A DNA stretch of 64,000 nucleotides from Escherichia coli. Its GTDB lineage: Bacteria > Pseudomonadota > Gammaproteobacteria > Enterobacterales > Enterobacteriaceae. Position 1 is the stretch's first letter, and the number at the start of each line of letters is the position of its first letter. Where the stretch lies: the NCBI RefSeq assembly GCF_044324875.1, contig NZ_CP172185.1. One strand, written 5' to 3'. Positions 16,494 to 28,959 of this stretch are shown piece after piece. The position numbers and the translations under genes were made by a program. Under the pieces are notes generated by a model that was not told where the DNA came from, made no database searches, and worked only from the letters and a program-made list of their open reading frames with translations.

Positions 16494-16603
16494 TCCTTTC
16501 TGTCAAGTTATCTGTTTGTTAAGTCAAGCAATCTATTTGCAACCCCACCATAACGATCATCCTGTTACGGAATATTACACTGCAACATTTGCGCACAAAA
16601 AAT

Positions 16604-16634
16604 AATCCGCATTCTTATTGCGGATTAGTTTTTT
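16604..16634 (+). terminator. second hairpin plus T-run in asnS-ompF intergenic, immediately abutting IS200 left end
   Basis: aatccgca-ttcttat-tgcggatt (8-bp stem) followed by agtttttt; the IS200-shared sequence starts right after. Confidence 0.5.
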
Positions 16635-17346
16635 GTGCACAGAAAACCCCCAGCTAGGCTGGGGGTTCCGGAAAGCTTTCAGCTTTGAGCCAGTTATTAA
16701 AACCCCTTTTGATTTGTTAAAACACCTTGCGGTCTGGCAACTGCAAGTGTCAAACAAGAAATCAAAAGGGGGTCCCAATGGGGAACGAAAAGAGCTTAGC
16801 GCACACCCGATGGAACTGTAAATATCACATAGTATTTGCGCCAAAATACCGAAGACAGGTGTTCTACAGAGAGAAGCGTAGAGCAATAGGCTGTATTTTG
16901 AGAAAGCTGTGTGAGTGGAAAAGTGTACGGATTCTGGAAGCTGAATGCTGTGCAGATCATATCCATATGCTTGTGGAGATCCCGCCCAAAATGAGCGTAT
17001 CAGGCTTTATGGGATATCTGAAAGGGAAAAGCAGTCTGATGCTTTACGAGCAGTTTGGTGATTTGAAATTCAAATACAGGAACAGGGAGTTCTGGTGCAG
17101 AGGGTATTACGTCGATACGGTGGGTAAGAACACGGCGAAGATACAGGATTACATAAAGCACCAGCTTGAAGAGGATAAAATGGGAGAGCAGTTATCGATT
17201 CCCTATCCGGGCAGCCCGTTTACGGGCCGTAAGTAACGAAGTTGGATGCAAATGTCAGATCGTGTGCGCCTGTTAGGGCGCGGCTGGTAAGAGAGCCTTA
17301 TAGGCGCATTTGAAAAACCTCCGGCTATGCCGGAGGATATTTATTC
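16634..17346 (+). mobile_element. IS200 insertion sequence, copy 1 (IS200/IS605 family, about 713 bp)
   Basis: Limits set by where the sequence stops matching the second copy (23755..24469, inverted); contains tnpA, a left-end hairpin cccccagc-tag-gctggggg and an RBS-sequestering stem; ends are approximate to within 3 bp. Confidence 0.85.
16778..17236 (+). CDS. tnpA: IS200 transposase TnpA (HUH Y1 transposase)
   Basis: 152 aa from MGNEKSLAHTRWNCKYHIVFAPKYRR...; the HxH motif (ADHIHMLVEI) is visible and the protein closely resembles Salmonella IS200 TnpA as recalled from memory. Confidence 0.9.
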   Translation: MGNEKSLAHTRWNCKYHIVFAPKYRRQVFYREKRRAIGCILRKLCEWKSVRILEAECCADHIHMLVEIPPKMSVSGFMGYLKGKSSLMLYEQFGDLKFKYRNREFWCRGYYVDTVGKNTAKIQDYIKHQLEEDKMGEQLSIPYPGSPFTGRK

Positions 17347-17559
17347 TTAGCTGATAGCACAATTTTCATACTATTTTTTGGCGTTCTGGATGTCTGAACG
17401 AGGATTTAGTGCCAGGTCGATAAAGTTTCCATCAGAAACAAAATTTCCGTTTAGTTAATTTAAATATAATGAAATCATATAAATAGATAAATATTGCTGT
17501 AAATATCATCACGCTTCTATGGAAATATGACGGTGTTCACAAAGTTCCTTAAATTTTAC

Positions 17560-17764
17560 TTTTGGTTACATATTTTTTCTTTTTGAAACCAAACCTTTAT
17601 CTTTGTAGCACTTTCACGGTAGCGAAACGTTAGTTTGAATGGAAAGATGCCTGCAGACACATAAAGACACCAAACTCTCATCAATAGTTCCGTAAATTTT
17701 TATTGACAGAACTTATTGACGGCAGTGGCAGGTGTCATAAAAAAAACCATGAGGGTAATAAATA
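17560..17764 (+). promoter_or_regulatory. ompF promoter with OmpR-binding region and 5' UTR (micF target)
   Basis: Sequence ttttacttttggttacatattttttctttttgaaaccaaa...ttgacagaacttattgacggcagtggcaggtgtcataaaaaaaacc matches my recollection of the K-12 ompF promoter/OmpR F1-F3 region. Confidence 0.55.
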
Positions 17765-19037: not shown

Positions 19038-20228
19038 ATGTTTGAGAACATTACCGCCGCTCCTGCCGACCCGATTCTGGGCCTGGCCGATCTGTTTCGT
19101 GCCGATGAACGTCCCGGCAAAATTAACCTCGGGATTGGTGTCTATAAAGATGAGACGGGCAAAACCCCGGTACTGACCAGTGTGAAAAAGGCTGAACAGT
19201 ATCTGCTCGAAAATGAAACCACCAAAAATTACCTCGGCATTGACGGCATCCCTGAATTTGGTCGCTGCACTCAGGAACTGCTGTTTGGTAAAGGTAGCGC
19301 CCTGATCAATGACAAACGTGCTCGCACGGCACAGACTCCGGGTGGCACTGGCGCACTACGCGTGGCTGCCGATTTCCTGGCAAAAAATACCAGCGTTAAG
19401 CGTGTGTGGGTGAGCAACCCAAGCTGGCCGAACCATAAGAGCGTCTTTAACTCTGCAGGTCTGGAAGTTCGTGAATACGCTTATTATGATGCGGAAAATC
19501 ACACCCTTGACTTCGATGCACTGATTAACAGCCTGAACGAAGCTCAGGCTGGCGACGTAGTGCTGTTCCATGGCTGCTGCCATAACCCAACCGGTATCGA
19601 CCCTACGCTGGAACAATGGCAGACACTGGCACAACTTTCCGTTGAGAAAGGCTGGTTACCGCTGTTTGACTTCGCTTACCAGGGTTTTGCCCGTGGTCTG
19701 GAAGAAGATGCTGAAGGACTGCGCGCTTTCGCGGCTATGCATAAAGAGCTGATTGTTGCCAGTTCCTACTCTAAAAACTTTGGCCTGTACAACGAGCGTG
19801 TTGGCGCTTGTACTCTGGTTGCTGCCGACAGTGAAACCGTTGATCGCGCATTCAGCCAAATGAAAGCGGCGATTCGCGCTAACTACTCTAACCCACCAGC
19901 ACACGGCGCTTCTGTTGTTGCCACCATCCTGAGCAACGATGCATTACGTGCGATTTGGGAACAAGAGCTGACTGATATGCGCCAGCGTATTCAGCGTATG
20001 CGTCAGTTGTTCGTCAATACGCTGCAGGAAAAAGGCGCAAACCGCGACTTCAGCTTTATCATCAAACAGAACGGCATGTTCTCCTTCAGTGGTCTGACAA
20101 AAGAACAAGTGCTGCGTCTGCGCGAAGAGTTTGGCGTGTATGCTGTTGCTTCTGGTCGTGTGAACGTAGCCGGGATGACACCAGATAACATGGCTCCGCT
20201 GTGCGAAGCGATTGTGGCAGTGCTGTAA
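19038..20228 (+). CDS. aspC: aspartate aminotransferase
   Basis: 396 aa; PLP lysine motif [14 protein letters not shown]. Confidence 0.95.
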
Positions 20229-20243
20229 GCGTTAAAAACAATG

Positions 20244-20272
20244 AAGCCCGCTTAAAAAGCGGGCTTTTTTAT
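20244..20272. terminator. bidirectional terminator between convergent aspC and ycbL
   Basis: Hairpin aagcccgcttaaaaagcgggctt flanked by A-run and T-run. Confidence 0.7.
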
Positions 20273-21681: not shown

Positions 21682-23529
21682 TTACCTGATTAATTGTTCC
21701 GCTTTCGATACGATTTGCGAGCTGGATCGCGCAGGCAGATCATAATTGTAAATATCTGTACGATACTGGGTACGACCATCTGCACCAACAAAGGCAGTCA
21801 GGTAGTAGAGATTCACCGGAATCGACTGCCGAATATTGACGTAACGCGTATCGCCCTGCTTCAGCGCATCAGAAATACGTTTGTCATTCCATCCTGCATC
21901 CTGCAACAGCATATTCGCCAGATCAGAAGCTTTATTCACTCGTACACAGCCTGAGCTCAATGCGCGTGTATCACGCTTGAACAGATTGTGGTTCGGCGTG
22001 TCATGCAAATAAATGGCCTCTGAACTCGGCATATTGAATTTATAGCGCCCCAGCGAGTTCCGTGGGCCTGGAGCCTGCTGGAAGCGAAACGGTAAATTCG
22101 AGGCCGTGATTGTAGACCAGTCAACCTGCCATGGGTCAATCGCTTCTCTGCTGTTCCAGCCGCGCATCACCGTATAGCCATGGCTTTCGAGATATCCCGG
22201 ATCGTTGCGCACTTTCGGCAGAATATCTTTGCGTGCCAGAGTTGGTGGTACGTTCCACGGCGGGTTTACCACTACGTTGTTAAGTGCACTGCTCATCATC
22301 GGCGTTTTGCGATCGGGGCGACCGACAATGACTCGCGAATCCAGCACCTGATTGCCGTTCTGATAGTAGACCAGCGAATAGGCCGGAATGTTAACCATGA
22401 TCCCGGTAGAAAGCTCTGTTGGCAGCAAGCGCAATCGCTGGATGTTGAGTGCCAACACGCCAGCACGCTGGGCGGGCGTTACGTTTAACCAGTCACGCGT
22501 TGCCGGGCCAATAGCGCCATCTGCTCCCAATCCTTGCCATGCCTGAAAACGTTTAACGGCTTCCACCAGTTCATTATCGTAGGCGGCACGAACGGCAGGC
22601 GCAGGTTTACTACGAGACGTCGTTTGCTTGTCCATCGGCTTAGTTTCTGCTGTTTCAACAGTAACAGCGGATGGGCTGACTACCGTGTCAGTTGGCGTGT
22701 CATCGCCAGGTAGAGTAATTTTCGGCCCCCCGTCCAACATGCCTGTGCGTTGCAATATTTCGCGCAACGCCGGTACGTCGTTACTCCACTGCCCTGGGCG
22801 CAACGTTGCTTTACCGGTCAGTTGAGGCCACGGTTTGGTGTCACTGAGTAAGGCCAGTAACGATTCATGCATCGCCGCATATTGCGGATGCTGCGGTGCC
22901 AGTCCTGCAACAAACGTCGGCAATTGACCTTTATCCAGCGCCAGCTGCCATTGGTTAATCACCGAAAGCGGCGGCGTTGCAAGCGCATAAGGTTTACTGC
23001 TATATAGCCAGCGAGTGCCTTTGACCGGAATATTTGCAATGAAATGGAGATAGCCCATCATCGCATCAGAGAGCACGACGTCGCGTGCCATCCCGTTAAC
23101 ACCAGGATCGGTCAGTAACTCTACCCATTTATTAAACTGCGGCTGGAAACCGGCAATCGCCACCTCGGCCAGCTGTTGCTGGAAGGCTTTAACAGCATCA
23201 CGGTTTTCCCACATGGGTTGCATATCGCGTGCGGCATACAACAGTTGAAGCTGGTTAAGATAAACCGGCTTGTAACCTGCGGGTAATTGAGATTCGATTT
23301 GCGTGCGGGCTTTTTCTGCCGCACCTTCAGGCAATGGCTGGATCCCCGCCATTATTGCCGTGGCTTGCGCCTGCGGCAGTGCCTCGCCCTGTTCACTGAC
23401 AGCCACCGGGCTGTCGCCAGGGATTACTTCAGGCTCATCGGCCTGCGCATTGAACAGTGGAGCGAATGTTACGGCCAGGCACAAACTGATTGCCGACAGC
23501 CGACGACCACACATCATATTAAGCAACAT
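21682..23529 (-). CDS. ldtD: L,D-transpeptidase LdtD (YcbB)
   Basis: 615 aa with signal peptide and YkuD-type catalytic region (HDTPNHNLF...SSGCVRV). Confidence 0.9.
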
Positions 23530-23754
23530 CCCTTGCCCCCTGTTTTTATCATACTCTGAATAGCCAGGCTGTTATTTTACGACTTACCTGTACAACGCCA
23601 ATACTCACGAAAGTATGACGAGCAAGCCTGTTACTCATCAGGCTTATCTTCAGTATATAAACGCCGATACGTTTTTACATAACCTAATGTAAAGAAGTTT
23701 AAAGAAAAGCGCGCCGTAATGTGCCACTTTTTTAGTGCAGAAACGGAGTTTTCG

Positions 23755-24469
23755 GAATAAATATCCTCCGGCATAGCCGGAGGTTTTTCAAATGCGCCTA
23801 TAAGGCTCTCTTACCAGCCGCGCCCTAACAGGCGCACACGATCTGACATTTGCATCCAACTTCGTTACTTACGGCCCGTAAACGGGCTGCCCGGATAGGG
23901 AATCGATAACTGCTCTCCCATTTTATCCTCTTCAAGCTGGTGCTTTATGTAATCCTGTATCTTCGCCGTGTTCTTACCCACCGTATCGACGTAATACCCT
24001 CTGCACCAGAACTCCCTGTTCCTGTATTTGAATTTCAAATCACCAAACTGCTCGTAAAGCATCAGACTGCTTTTCCCTTTCAGATATCCCATAAAGCCTG
24101 ATACGCTCATTTTGGGCGGGATCTCCACAAGCATATGGATATGATCTGCACAGCATTCAGCTTCCAGAATCCGTACACTTTTCCACTCACACAGCTTTCT
24201 CAAAATACAGCCTATTGCTCTACGCTTCTCTCTGTAGAACACCTGTCTTCGGTATTTTGGCGCAAATACTATGTGATATTTACAGTTCCATCGGGTGTGC
24301 GCTAAGCTCTTTTCGTTCCCCATTGGGACCCCCTTTTGATTTCTTGTTTGACACTTGCAGTTGCCAGACCGCAAGGTGTTTTAACAAATCAAAAGGGGTT
24401 TTAATAACTGGCTCAAAGCTGAAAGCTTTCCGGAACCCCCAGCCTAGCTGGGGGTTTTCTGTGCACAAA
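23755..24469 (-). mobile_element. IS200 insertion sequence, copy 2 (inverted relative to copy 1)
   Basis: Reverse complement matches copy 1 over the full element including tnpA (identical 169-aa ORF translation); ends set by loss of identity. Confidence 0.85.
23865..24323 (-). CDS. tnpA: IS200 transposase TnpA
   Basis: ORF translation identical to the copy-1 ORF; 152 aa from MGNEKSLAHT... Confidence 0.9.
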   Translation of the reverse strand: MGNEKSLAHTRWNCKYHIVFAPKYRRQVFYREKRRAIGCILRKLCEWKSVRILEAECCADHIHMLVEIPPKMSVSGFMGYLKGKSSLMLYEQFGDLKFKYRNREFWCRGYYVDTVGKNTAKIQDYIKHQLEEDKMGEQLSIPYPGSPFTGRK

Positions 24470-24492
24470 GAAAAGGCGGCATTGCTGCCGCC
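24470..24492 (-). terminator. rho-independent terminator of mukB, abutting IS200 copy 2 left end
   Basis: Hairpin ggcggcagcaatgccgcc followed on the minus strand by ttttcttt, 5 nt after the mukB stop. Confidence 0.65.
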
Positions 24493-24498
24493 TTCATT

Positions 24499-27400
24499 TT
24501 AACTCGCTTGGGAAGGCACTTCGTCACTTCCAGGAAGCGTTTCAGGGAGTTGCGGCGCAAATCCTCGCAGGCCGACGACGTGAACGTGTTCGGTATTCTG
24601 GAAGACTTTACGCACCAGTTTATAGGTGGTGCCTTTTTCCGGACTGATATTTTCCGGCGCTGCGATGATGAGCTGCATTTGCAAACGTTCACACAATTCA
24701 AACAGCGTGGCGATAGAACGAGCATCCAGTCGCGCTGCTTCATCGAGGAACAGCAGGCGGCAAGGAGAGATATCTTTACCGCGCAGGCGGCGAGATTCAT
24801 CTTCCCAGCTTTGTACCACCATCACCAGAATCGACATACCGGTACCAATCGCCTCACCGGTCGACAATGCACCAGACTCTGCGCGCAACCAGCCATCAGA
24901 ACCACGGTTAACCTCAACTTCCATTTCCAGATAGTTGCGGTAATCCAGCAGTTCTTCGCCAATGGTCTGCGGCGTGCGCTGCCCCATATCAATCTGCGGA
25001 TTAAGACGCTGATACAATTTCGCCAGCGCTTCCGAGAAGGTCAGACGGTTGCTGTTAAACAGATCCTGATGCTGCTCATGCTGTTCAGAGAGCACATCCA
25101 GCAGCATGGCGTGCGTTTCACGCACGTTCACGTTGAGGCGCACGCTGTTCACCTGACCAAACGATACGTTCTGCAACCCCTGGTTGAGCATACGGATACG
25201 GTTCTGCTCGCGCTGAATGGTTTTGCGAATGATGTTCGCCACGCTGCGGGAACTGATCGCCAGTTTCTGTTCGCGGGAGGTTAATTCTTCGGTCAGACGG
25301 CTAAGTTCGATCTCCATCTGTTCGATAGCTTCCACCGGATCATCGGTACGAATAATATCCTGACGAATACGTTCACGCAGATGCTGATAAACCGCCACGA
25401 AGAACTGAATTTTACGCTCCGGACGTTTCGGATCTTCCGACATGCGCAGCACGTCGCGCAGATGTTCGTTATCCGCCACCGCCAGACGCAGCGCACCTAA
25501 CGCCTTATCCGACATAGAGCGCAAATCATCAGCGGAGAGATAAGCCAGCTCACGACGGTGTAAGCGACGCTCAACGCCGTTATCTTTCACCATGCGCATG
25601 ACTGCACACCAGCCCGCTTTCGCGGTCACTACCTGCTCGCGCATCTCAAAGTAATCCCGCTCCAGCTTGCGCAGTTTGCGGGTCAGGTTGTCCATCTCTG
25701 CTTCGCAGAAGGTAAGCGCTTTTTCCAGTTGATTGCGGCGTGAACGGTTATTGCTCAGTTGCGCGTGCAACTCGTCACGGCGAATACGCGCCCGCTCTTC
25801 TGCCCCGCTATCAGCTCGCACGCCGATATCCTGCAATTCACGTTGCAGATCATTGAGTAGCTCTTTTTTGGTGTCGTAAGAACTTTTCAGCGAAGCCAGC
25901 ACCTGGTTGTACTGACTCAACTGCGCTGCGTGTCCGCGCAACGCTTCACGCGCGCGGGTACGCTCCGCTTCCGCCTGTTCCAGACGTTCACGCAGTTTTT
26001 CGTTGAGATCGCTGTTACCGCTAAGCATTTCTGCCGAGTCAGAGTAGCTAAAGTGCGCACGACGTTGCACCACTTCCGTCAGGGCAAACGCCTGCTGACG
26101 GGCATCGCGCTGCATCTGCTGAGAGTACGCGTAATCTTCTTTTAACTGTTCGAACTGTTCCGGGTCACTCTGCAATACCGAAACGATCGGTTCCAGTTTC
26201 GCCAGTTGATTACCGAACTGCTGAACAAAACGCGCGGCTTCCTGGGCTTCATCCAGACGTTCGCGGATTTCATCGACGCGATCCGCCAGGCTGTCATCAG
26301 CCAACAAGTTGAGACGCGGCAGAATGCGGTTCAGCGCCGTAACACCCTCTTTCGCCTGCTCAAACTGAATACGCTGCTGCTGGTTATCATTTTCATGATT
26401 ACTCAACGCCCGCTCCAGTTCGACGCGACGGCTGTTCAGTTGACGGATTTCTGCTTCCGGGTCAGACTCAAACGCCACCGCCAGATGACTACCTATAAAG
26501 CGGCTGAATGCCTGATGCAGACGCTGGGTTTTCTGTACATCAAAGGAGAGCGTGGCGAAGCGTTCGGAAAGCACTTCACGCTCGGCATGGAGGCTTTCAA
26601 TACGGCTTTCACGCGCAGCACGACCAAACAGCGGCACTTCCGGGAAACGTGAATAACGCCACTGACGATCGGCGATTTTCACCACTACCGCTTTTTCCAG
26701 CTCATCAACGCTGAACACGCTGTCATCGAATGACTGCGGATCCCCTTCGATCAGATAGAGATCTTCCGGGCAATCGGTCAAGCCTTCCAGGTGCTCGGTT
26801 ACCTGTGACAGATCTGGCACCACGATGGCGTGGCGTGACGGGCCATACAGTGCCGAGAAGTACGGCGCATCTTCCAGACTCACGTCGTCATAAATTTCGG
26901 ACAGCAGCACGCCGCCAAAACGCTCCGCCAGCGCATTCAAACGCTGGTCTTCAGAACCACCTGGCTGGCTTAAACGTTCGATCTCTTCATCGACGGCGTT
27001 TTTGCGCGCGCCTACTTCATCGCGTTCAACAATGGCTTCGCGCTCACGCTCCAGCAACTGTTGCAGATATTCGGTGACATCCTGGCTAGAGGAGAACTCT
27101 TCGCCGCACTGTTCGCTCAACTGGTTGAGGCTGTTTTGCGCAGCCAGCCAAACCGGCGCACGCTGCATCAAACTCTGAATGCGAGACTGCAGCTGTTCCT
27201 GTTCCTGGCGCAGAGCCATGCGCTCTTCACGGGCGTTAGACACGCTATCGGAAAGAGAGGCAATGCGTGCTTCCAGCTCCTGATGCAGAGCTTCCAGTTC
27301 ATCAATATCAAAATTCTTGCCCTGACGTTTGCAGAAATCTGCCAGCAGGCGTTCGGCTTCTTGCTGCTCGCGCAGACGCTGTTCCAGTTCGCTTAAGCGC

Positions 27401-28959
27401 ATCCGCAACGGTTGAACCTGCTCTGCCAGGTGACGCTGATCGACCCCTTCGCGCAATAGTTCGCGAGCGACATCCCACGCCTCGTTACGCGCCAGCGGGC
27501 CATTAATTGCCACCACCAGCTGATAAGCCTGCTCAAACTGGCTGTGTGCGGTTTGCGCCATGCTCATTTTCTGCTCAAGAGAGAGCATTTTTTCAGTCGC
27601 TTCCAGCTCTTTCGCCTGGAAGGTTTCCAGCCATTCGGCGGCGCTGTCGGCGGTTAAGTCCGGCAGATGGCACAGTTCTTTGGCACGATTAAGCGCAGCA
27701 ATCGCCTGGTTATACTGGATCGCGCGCGTTTGCTGGACGTCCAGCGCCTGCTGATAGTCAGCAAGCTGGCTTTTCAGCTCGTCCACTTCCAGTTCGGCAG
27801 CTTCCGCACGAGCCTCGTTCTCTTCCTGGCGTTCGATGGCTTCTGCCACCACTTCGTTTTGCTCTTCCAGACGGATCTGCAGCTCATCGAGATCCGCTTC
27901 GTAACGTTCGATCTTCTCCTGCTGACGCAGTGCGGTTTGCACCAGGTTCAGGTGATCGCTGGCCGCCTGATAATCTGCTTCCAGATCGCCTTCGGCACCG
28001 TTGTGCTCTGCCAGCTCACGCGCCATATCGACGTGTTTGTACTGCTCAGCCGCCAGTTGCTGACGCGAAGTGTGTAGCTCGCGACGAAATTCCAGGGCTT
28101 TGTCGAGATGGACACGGCGCTCGTTGGCGTGACGCATGTAGTCCGCCGCCACGTAGTTGGTGGCTTCGCTGATCAGATGCTTAAACAGGTCACGGTCCGA
28201 CTGGGTGACACGAATCGCTTCCAGCGTCATGCGGTTTTCGCGCAGCGCCGCTTCCATGTCCTGGAACGCTTTCCGCACGCCGCTGTTTTCCGGCAACAGG
28301 TAGTCGCGCAGAGAGCGCGTAATGGCGCTGGAGATCCCGCCGTACAGCGAAGCTTCGATCAGACGATAGAATTTGCTACGGTCAGACGCTGAGCGCAGAC
28401 GACGCGCGATGATGCCCAGATCGAACATCAGCGAGTGGTAATCGGTAATGGAGTTGAACTGCTTAAACTGCACGCCTTCCATCGCCTCGAGCTTGTCTTT
28501 CAGCTCGTTCAGCGGCAGTACACGCGCCTGGCGTTCGTTGAGGGTTTCGGTCACCAGCTGCGTCGGCAGCACCGACATCGGCAGGCCCTGAATGGCAAAC
28601 GGTTTGATATCGACTTTACGATCGCGTCCGGCAACCTGTTGCAAACGCACACCGACCACCACACGCTGGTGGCGCGAGTTAATGGTGTCGAGCATCGAAT
28701 AACAGACACCCGCTTTCAGCTTACCGTGCAGACCTTTATCGCGCGAACCGCTGGTGGCCCCGGCTTCCGTGGTGTTACGGAAATGCAGCAGGGTCAGGTC
28801 GGGGATCAGCGCCGTAACGAACGCCGCCATGGTGGTGGATTTACCCGCCCCGTTACCGCCGGAGAGCGTCGTAACCAGCTCATCGAGGTCAAAAGTTCGG
28901 GCAAAAAAGCCGTTCCAGTTAATCAGCGTCAGTGAGCGAAATTTACCGCGTTCAATCAT
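24499..28959 (-). CDS. mukB: chromosome partition protein MukB (SMC-like condensin)
   Basis: 1486 aa; N-terminal Walker A (GGNGAGKST), long coiled-coil middle, C-terminal ATPase tail. Confidence 0.95.

Follow-up and report, generated by a model that had tools for sequence, protein, structure and literature searches.

An IS200C copy in the mukB terminator T-run of Escherichia coli, oriented by its target site and probably near-neutral for ldtD

IS608 and ISDra2 are the mechanistic paradigm for the single-strand 'peel and paste' transposition carried out by Y1 transposases. Throughout the IS200/IS605 family, the left end of an element always lies 3ʹ of an element-specific tetra- or pentanucleotide (PMC5027513). 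Functional work on IS200 itself, covering terminator efficiency, the antisense RNA art200 and the trans-acting 5ʹtnpA sRNA, comes from the Salmonella enterica element and would extend to E. coli copies by analogy. IS200 was first found as a polar insertion, and at nt 12-34 of its left end lies a rho-independent terminator that works in both directions, shielding tnpA from transcription entering the element (PMC4513863) and stopping about 85% of incoming transcripts (PMC5435999). Transcription of tnpA starts near nt 40 from an intrinsically weak promoter, a stem-loop in the 5ʹUTR masks the Shine-Dalgarno sequence, art200 acts as an antisense RNA, and the tnpA transcript is processed to a small 5ʹ RNA (PMC4513863, PMC5435999, PMC12594629). 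As to the sites occupied, the IS200C copies of one E. coli isolate lie in T-rich regions with TTTT at their flanks (PMC6963479), a copy of Yersinia pestis IS1541 lies between pheL and pheA just after the attenuator terminator (PMC3082878), and terminator-like sequences are enriched just upstream of insertion sequences (ISs), most strongly for IS200/IS605 (bioRxiv 10.1101/2025.07.22.666184).

Here, we analysed a window of 64,000 nucleotides from E. coli (contig NZ_CP172185.1 of assembly GCF_044324875.1), which contains two copies of IS200C (Table 1). On the minus strand, the sequence and its open reading frames (ORFs) gave the order mukB, an intrinsic terminator, a complete IS200C (copy 2), a spacer of 226-228 bp, and ldtD with its ATG at 23529. 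A first-pass annotation of this DNA had already noted an IS200 copy upstream of ldtD, inserted past the mukB terminator and before the ldtD promoter region, its tnpA sharing a strand with ldtD and reading toward it. The sequence, the ORFs and the alignment to the empty site of K-12 bore this out, with tnpA at 24323..23865 and ldtD at 23529..21682, both on the minus strand. The distance of 225 bp given there, with 23754 as the end of the interval, was approximately right and off by 1-3 bp, the boundary being ambiguous within the T-run: the spacer 23757..23530 measures 228 bp with a 709-bp IS and 226 bp with the 711-bp boundary. We consider it likely that copy 2 is a potentially mobile IS200C that inserted into the T-run of the mukB terminator in an orientation set by targeting, and that it is self-contained and leaves ldtD nearly unaffected.

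Copy 2 extends from G24466 to A23758 (709 bp), or over 711 bp when the invariant terminal TT (23757-23756) is counted. It starts with GTGCACAGAAAACCCCCAGCTAGGCTGGGGGTT at 24466 and ends with ...CCTCCGGCTATGCCGGAGGATATTTA at 23758, and all 709 bp were identical to the annotated IS200C of E. coli 042 and of many other RefSeq E. coli genomes, where the copies are labelled 'IS200/IS605-like element IS200C family transposase'. Copies 1 and 2 were likewise 100% identical over 709 bp. The ends, GTGCACAG... and ...GGATATTTATT, form no terminal inverted repeats, and subterminal hairpins are present at both ends. The tnpA product matched Pfam PF01797 (Y1_Tnp) with E=1.7e-37 over profile positions 2-121 of 121, its translation shows the HIH motif and the C-terminal Tyr, and 151 of its 152 residues were identical to RefSeq WP_000526135.1, the IS200C transposase. 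The ORF list contained no second ORF of at least 50 aa with family support inside IS200C, which is without tnpB, unlike IS608 and ISDra2.

The regulatory module of the left end was present in full, as judged from Rfam and folding: a terminator hairpin equivalent to that published for nt 12-34 (PMC4513863), a structured tnpA 5ʹUTR, and the antisense art200/STnc490. Both the STnc490 match and the left-end fold agree with the structures published for Salmonella IS200. The right-end hairpin, located after tnpA, has 8 bp, 7 of them GC, with a centroid energy of -15.9 kcal/mol and the tail AUAUUUAUU. The left end lies 3ʹ of a short target and there is no target duplication, as in the IS200 group. 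As far as can be assessed from sequence, copy 2 is an IS200C (IS200/IS605 family, IS200 group) in every respect, and it would be a complete, potentially mobile element. Two identical copies in the window and the polymorphism of the site among genomes are indirect signs of mobility.

Table 1. Features of the mukB-ldtD locus and of IS200C copy 1 in the window, with junctions of IS200C at the mukB terminator
Feature	Coordinates	Strand	Evidence or sequence
mukB CDS	24499..28959	-	1486-aa ORF; mukB annotation in matching RefSeq loci
mukB stop TAA	24501..24499	-	
mukB intrinsic terminator, hairpin GAAGGCGGCAGCAATGCCGCCTT and T-run TTTTCTTT	24467..24495	-	terminator scan, RNA fold, K-12 empty site
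IS200C copy 2	23756..24466	-	alignment to IS-free K-12 and IS-carrying genomes
Left-end perfect hairpin, IS nt 11-33	24434..24456	-	fold; equivalent to published bidirectional terminator
STnc490 (Rfam RF01405)	24333..24456	-	146.4 bits vs gathering score 56, E=8.9e-31, full length 1-124
tnpA, intact 152-aa Y1 (HUH) transposase	23865..24323	-	Pfam PF01797
Right-end subterminal hairpin CCTCCGGCTATGCCGGAGG, then ATATTTATT	23765..23783	-	fold, scan; terminator-like on both strands
Native mukB-ldtD intergenic DNA 3ʹ of the IS	23530..23755	-	alignment to K-12; interval of the first-pass annotation
CpxR-consensus-like box GTAAAGAAGTTTAAA, inferred site	23689..23703	+	pattern scan, 1 mismatch to GTAAA-N5-GTAAA
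All sigma-70-like ldtD promoter candidates	23548..23680	-	23680..23652, 23601..23574, 23575..23548; native DNA only
ldtD (ycbB), intact 615-aa L,D-transpeptidase	21682..23529	-	ORF, Pfam, annotation of matching loci
IS200C copy 1, end of asnS terminator T6 run, upstream of ompF	16635..17345	+	K-12 comparison; 709 bp = 16635..17343
Junction, EC2257			CTT-IS-TTTTTCCG (CTT-IS-TTTTT)
Junction, strain 104			CTTT-IS-TTTTCCG
Junction, E300010			CTTTTT-IS-TTCCG
Junction, 2012C-4502			CTT-IS-TTTTCCG
Junction, window			CTTT-IS-TTCCG

The 3ʹ end of mukB has the form of a rho-independent terminator, with a GC-rich hairpin and then a U-run past the stop codon. It starts 4 nt after the TAA; the hairpin (24495..24472) has 10 pairs, 6 of them GC, folds stably, and is followed by the tail TCTTTGTGCA, the T-run reaching 24467. 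The IS-free locus of K-12 reads GCCGCCTTTTCTTTTTCCGAAAAC, and the empty site is GCCGCCTTTTCTTTTT/CCGAAAAC, that is, CCTTTTCTTTTT/CCG. In the window, the same stretch reads ...TTTTCTTT, then the IS, then TTCCGAAAAC... toward the ldtD ATG, so that the IS splits the T-run, which is TTTTCTTT in the window and TTTTCTTTTT in K-12. The insertion lies at the 3ʹ end of the terminator T-run and leaves the hairpin as it was, together with the first 8 nt of the U-tract. In K-12, the DNA that precedes this point is the mukB terminator and coding sequence; in the window it is now about 710 bp further from ldtD, and the interval from the terminator to ldtD has lost no sequence. At its junction, CTTT-IS-TTCCG (23756..23758 and 24467..24469), copy 2 has two T fewer than a clean insertion into the T5 of K-12, and slippage, a shorter (T3) ancestral site or a homopolymer sequencing error are possible sources of this shortfall. 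Copy 1 followed the same targeting rule at the asnS terminator, its junction being GCGGATTAGTTTTTT-IS-TTCTTAGC compared with ...TTTTTTCTTAGC in K-12, or, in a longer reading, AATCCGCATTCTTATTGCGGATTAGTTTTTT-IS-TTCTTAGC compared with ...AGTTTTTTCTTAGC.

To describe target choice over the IS200 group, one genome per species was scanned for the 25-nt left-end hairpin, which yielded 118 non-redundant left-end junctions. In the flank before the element, T was found at position -5 in 113 junctions, at -4 in 100, at -2 in 116 and at -1 in 105, and T or A at -3 in 96, giving TT(T/A)TT as the consensus end of the flank. We then looked for hairpins that end within 11 nt of the junction and have a stem of 5 bp or more, including 3 or more GC pairs, and used as controls 894 TT[TA]TT sites outside long ORFs of the same loci. 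Such a hairpin was present at 99 of the 118 junctions (84%) but at only 97 of the 894 controls (11%), corresponding to an odds ratio of 43 (p=1e-61), and the 40 nt upstream folded with a median MFE of -18.2 kcal/mol at junctions compared with -3.8 kcal/mol at controls. The pattern appeared in each sub-variant, including Y. pestis IS1541 (45/57), Vibrio (16/17), Mailhella/Desulfovibrio (11/12) and others. A stricter terminator detector, which required a tail of 60% T after maximal stem extension, recovered 69 of the 118 junctions and was replaced by the hairpin-distance criterion. IS1541 has a 25-nt left-end hairpin identical to that of IS200C and the same flank of hairpin plus T-run; it differs in its first 8 nt (GTGCCCAG vs GTGCACAG in IS200C) and in a far higher copy number.

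These junctions show that the left end of IS200-group elements inserts directly 3ʹ of TT(T/A)TT behind a GC hairpin, which in practice is the end of an intrinsic terminator. Because the strand of the T-run is the target strand and fixes the orientation, tnpA is co-directional with the terminated gene, here mukB, and points toward ldtD. An orientation set by targeting provides no evidence of selection on ldtD, and a co-directional IS200 just past a terminator is best taken as the default outcome of targeting rather than a sign of regulatory rewiring. The locus is a clean illustration of how IS200C chooses its site.

IS200C shares with IS608 and ISDra2 a left end 3ʹ of a short element-specific target, the lack of inverted repeats, and subterminal hairpins at both ends (PMC5027513), but IS608 requires only TTAC, whereas the IS200-group target almost always comes with a GC hairpin. 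In IS200C, AAAA stands just 5ʹ of the foot of both hairpins, and the cleavage sites are T-rich (TT(T/A)TT at the target and TTATT at the right end), an arrangement that would fit guide and cleavage-site pairing of the IS608 type. It is a tentative proposal, which we rate slightly below even, that IS200-group transposases recognise the whole terminator, GC hairpin and T-run, as single-stranded DNA that mimics the element's own right end (hairpin plus ATATTTATT). If so, terminator T-runs would be structural hot spots, and the proposal would explain both the repeated insertions in the same orientation into a 5-nt run behind mukB and the tandem copies in which a left end abuts the right end of another copy (L071, L118). 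Part of the hairpin association could also arise with no active recognition, through survivorship, insertions behind terminators being the least harmful.

In the tandem IS1541 copies of Y. pestis (L071 around 337; L118), the left end lies directly against ...CCGGAGGATATTTATT(T) of another copy, which means that the element's own right end was used as a target, consistent with recognition of a hairpin and a T-rich tail. The exact enterobacterial-type 25-mer of the IS200 left end also turned up in the scan on numerous contigs from metagenome-assembled genomes (MAGs; L009-L027, L031-L038, L058-L069), where the first 8 nt are distinct. These contigs are labelled Bacillota, Peptococcaceae, Saccharibacteria, Oxalobacter, Mailhella/Desulfovibrio and Elusimicrobiaceae, and the 25-mer is mostly at contig ends; either the conserved left-end hairpin is very widely spread or the contigs were mis-binned.

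The element is a known one at a typical site, as NCBI already annotates IS200C between mukB and ldtD in 97 genomes. Among 5426 complete E. coli genomes, these 97 carried IS200C at the mukB terminator, collinear with the window, and the site was empty in 98%. The junctions differed between genomes (Table 1). EC2257, strain 104 and E300010 each have a T total of 7, equal to the T5 of K-12 plus the terminal TT of the IS, split as 2+5, 3+4 and 5+2, respectively. Taking the element as 711 bp, removal of the IS restored the exact empty site for copy 1 and, at the mukB terminator, for three other genomes; compared with the IS200C insertions of other genomes at this site, the window junction has two T fewer and its IS variant is 5-9 SNPs apart. 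Between genomes, 4-9 SNPs distinguish the variants at the mukB site. Within the window, and likewise within E300010, both copies have the same sequence, but the copies of one genome differ from those of the other by 7 SNPs, and this speaks for a recent insertion in each genome by the variant it already carried. Taken together, the insertions at the mukB terminator occupy at least three junction positions and involve several IS variants, which points to recurrent insertion.

A single ancient insertion, spread vertically or by recombination and with junction differences due to slippage or sequencing error, would be the competing account of these data, and we regard it as unlikely. Between genomes, the ISs diverge by 0.6-1.3% and the flanks by a comparable 0.2-2.3%, so IS divergence alone is no proof of independent insertions, and 73 records have the exact left junction that strain 104 shares with the window. 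Slippage or error does occur: the IS and flanks of 2012C-4502 are identical to those of strain 104 with one T fewer at the left junction, which looks like a one-T slip or a sequencing error. However, slippage would need paired compensating indels to keep the T total constant at 7 over three junction types, a result that exact insertion at three places within one run would produce, and both the identity of copies within genomes against 7 SNPs between them and the emptiness of the site in nearly all genomes argue against a single event.

Recurrent insertion, the reading we prefer, comes with no sign of special enrichment at this site. Of roughly 9,459 chromosomal IS200C places, about 1% are at the mukB terminator, an unremarkable share for one terminator among many that suggests no selection through ldtD. 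As sites recur independently across lineages, shared IS200 positions are weak phylogenetic markers.

The product of ldtD has YkuD, Scaffold and PG_binding_1 domains according to Pfam. That ldtD is stress-regulated in K-12, as the first-pass annotation stated, agrees with published work: the gene is induced by envelope stress and Cpx (PMC6428754) and is listed among the known CpxR targets (PMC7657598). Without stress, ldtD promoter activity in K-12 is low, and expression is driven by the gene's own stress-responsive promoter (PMC6428754). From the insertion point to the ldtD ATG, the window is identical to K-12 except for one SNP at 23586, and the spacer had no Rfam match. The SNP is a C to T change on the ldtD sense strand (GGCAAG in K-12, GGTAAG in the window) and affects the promoter-like site 23601..23574 in its spacer; at this position, EC2257 agrees with K-12. 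The candidate CpxR box was called by its resemblance to GTAAA-N5-GTAAA, which we take to be the CpxR consensus. It lies 54 nt downstream of the IS end, is the sole such box in the retained stretch, and stands immediately upstream of the promoter-like site 23680..23652, both being downstream of the IS. The first-pass annotation had suggested that the IS might displace upstream regulatory sites, and within the intergenic region this was not so: none was displaced, since the 226-228 bp match K-12 bar the one SNP and the CpxR-like box and promoter candidates are kept.

Outward transcription from the IS, also raised there, found no support either. A scan based on the sigma-70 consensus only detected no promoter-like site scoring at least 8/12 in the last 200 bp of the IS (23960..23758) or across the junction, and the right end thus showed neither the outward nor the hybrid promoter typical of gene-activating ISs. 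The likeness to activators of the IS1, IS2, IS5 and IS10 pOUT type is that an IS lies upstream of, and co-directional with, a stress gene. Unlike those elements, IS200C has no outward -35 or complete promoter at its right end, which is closed by a terminator-like hairpin, and it is positioned 226-228 bp from the ATG, upstream of the native ldtD promoter candidates.

Considering the anatomy of copy 2, IS200C would be transcriptionally self-contained, its tnpA promoter being weak, its 5ʹUTR structured and processed, and its ends bearing a bidirectional terminator on the left and a hairpin with a U-rich tail on the right. With no DNA lost between the terminator and ldtD, the consequence for ldtD would be close to nil, and at most two terminator-like hairpins would have been added between the mukFEB operon and ldtD. 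We infer that an effect on ldtD expression is unlikely and that the insertion is probably near-neutral. The regulatory interpretation of the first-pass annotation therefore stands in its geometry but probably not in its consequences, read-through being limited by the weak promoter and the hairpins; we do not discard it entirely because a small read-through contribution could still be made. Should the IS have any effect, insulation of ldtD from mukFEB read-through is as plausible as activation.

The IS might nevertheless raise ldtD if tnpA transcripts, or mukB transcripts escaping three hairpins, passed an imperfect right-end terminator and added a Cpx-independent basal level, an outcome that we judge improbable. 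The two genes are co-directional with only 335 nt from the tnpA stop to the ldtD ATG, and the U-tract in the right-end tail AUAUUUAUUCC falls short of a canonical terminator's; with A residues breaking up the tail AUAUUUAUU, termination may be incomplete, so that some tnpA transcripts could run on into ldtD. Still, the flux from the IS into ldtD is expected to be small, given the weak tnpA promoter and the right-end hairpin, whose predicted stability speaks against this outcome together with the lack of a predicted outward promoter in the scan. The left-end terminator, which in Salmonella stops most incoming transcripts (PMC4513863, PMC5435999), the discovery of IS200 as a polar insertion (PMC4513863), and the low occupancy of the site, which suggests no selection, also weigh against it. 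If read-through does occur, it would be relevant, as the LdtD level limits 3-3 cross-linking under outer-membrane stress (PMC6428754); that partial read-through raises basal ldtD and could thereby ease LdtD-dependent bypass of penicillin-binding proteins seems doubtful, at roughly one chance in ten by our own estimate.

Even less probable, in our view, is that the IS acts as an insulator that lowers ldtD, the extra hairpins behind the mukB terminator removing a mukFEB read-through contribution to basal expression. The sense strand between mukB and ldtD now has three terminator-like hairpins compared with one in K-12, and the left-end terminator is experimentally strong (PMC5435999). However, the mukB terminator was already a strong hairpin with an 8-nt U-rich tract, which is intact beside the IS, and ldtD in K-12 is low without stress and has its own stress-responsive promoter (PMC6428754), so mukFEB read-through was probably negligible from the start. 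It is very hard to credit that a distal regulatory element beyond -228, located in the terminator or the mukB 3ʹ end, has been parted from ldtD by the IS: the published ldtD-lacZ fusion spans -579 to +232 and so includes 579 bp upstream, a span too wide to delimit the minimal region (PMC6428754, supplement), but the K-12 DNA in question is terminator and coding sequence, and the IS lies upstream of the one CpxR-like box as well as of every promoter-like site.

Near-neutrality of copy 2 for ldtD remains the reading we favour, and several further observations concern the window as a whole. Copies 1 and 2, identical and inverted, surround a 6.4-kb segment (ompF-aspC-gloC-mepK-ldtD) and are a substrate for inversion by homologous recombination. 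Such an inversion of the segment was considered and rejected, gene order and orientation being collinear with K-12. In K-12 geometry, the active strand of copy 2 is on the lagging-strand template and that of copy 1 is not, and with n=2 this permits no conclusion on strand bias. An Rfam Trp_leader candidate between aspC and gloC (20185..20272, plus strand) was also set aside: with 32 bits (E=0.0019) it stayed short of the gathering score, 41, and a terminator-like hairpin that matched by chance probably accounts for it.

Copy 1 is more interesting than copy 2, because it separates a candidate F4 from F1-F3 of ompF. F4 is described as an OmpR site 260 bp upstream of F1-F3 that loops and represses ompF at high osmolarity (PMC3050692, PMC1489923). 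In the window (region 16564..17575), copy 1 has the candidate distal OmpR site F4 (GTTACGGAATATTACA, 16564), assigned by position and sequence resemblance, on one side and F1 (TTTACTTTTGGTTACATATT, 17555) on the other, and the F4-F1 distance increased from 280 bp in K-12 to 991 bp. Judged from this arrangement, copy 1 could weaken the osmotic repression of OmpF. In E300010 and MEW, the asnS-ompF intergenic region is another allele whose terminator also differs, GAGCCAGCACCCGCTGGCTC plus T7 (L005 1277..1985; L006 9094..9802), and IS200C sits at the end of that T-run as GAGCCAGCACCCGCTGGCTCTTTTTTT-IS, an independent insertion at an analogous place in non-homologous sequence.
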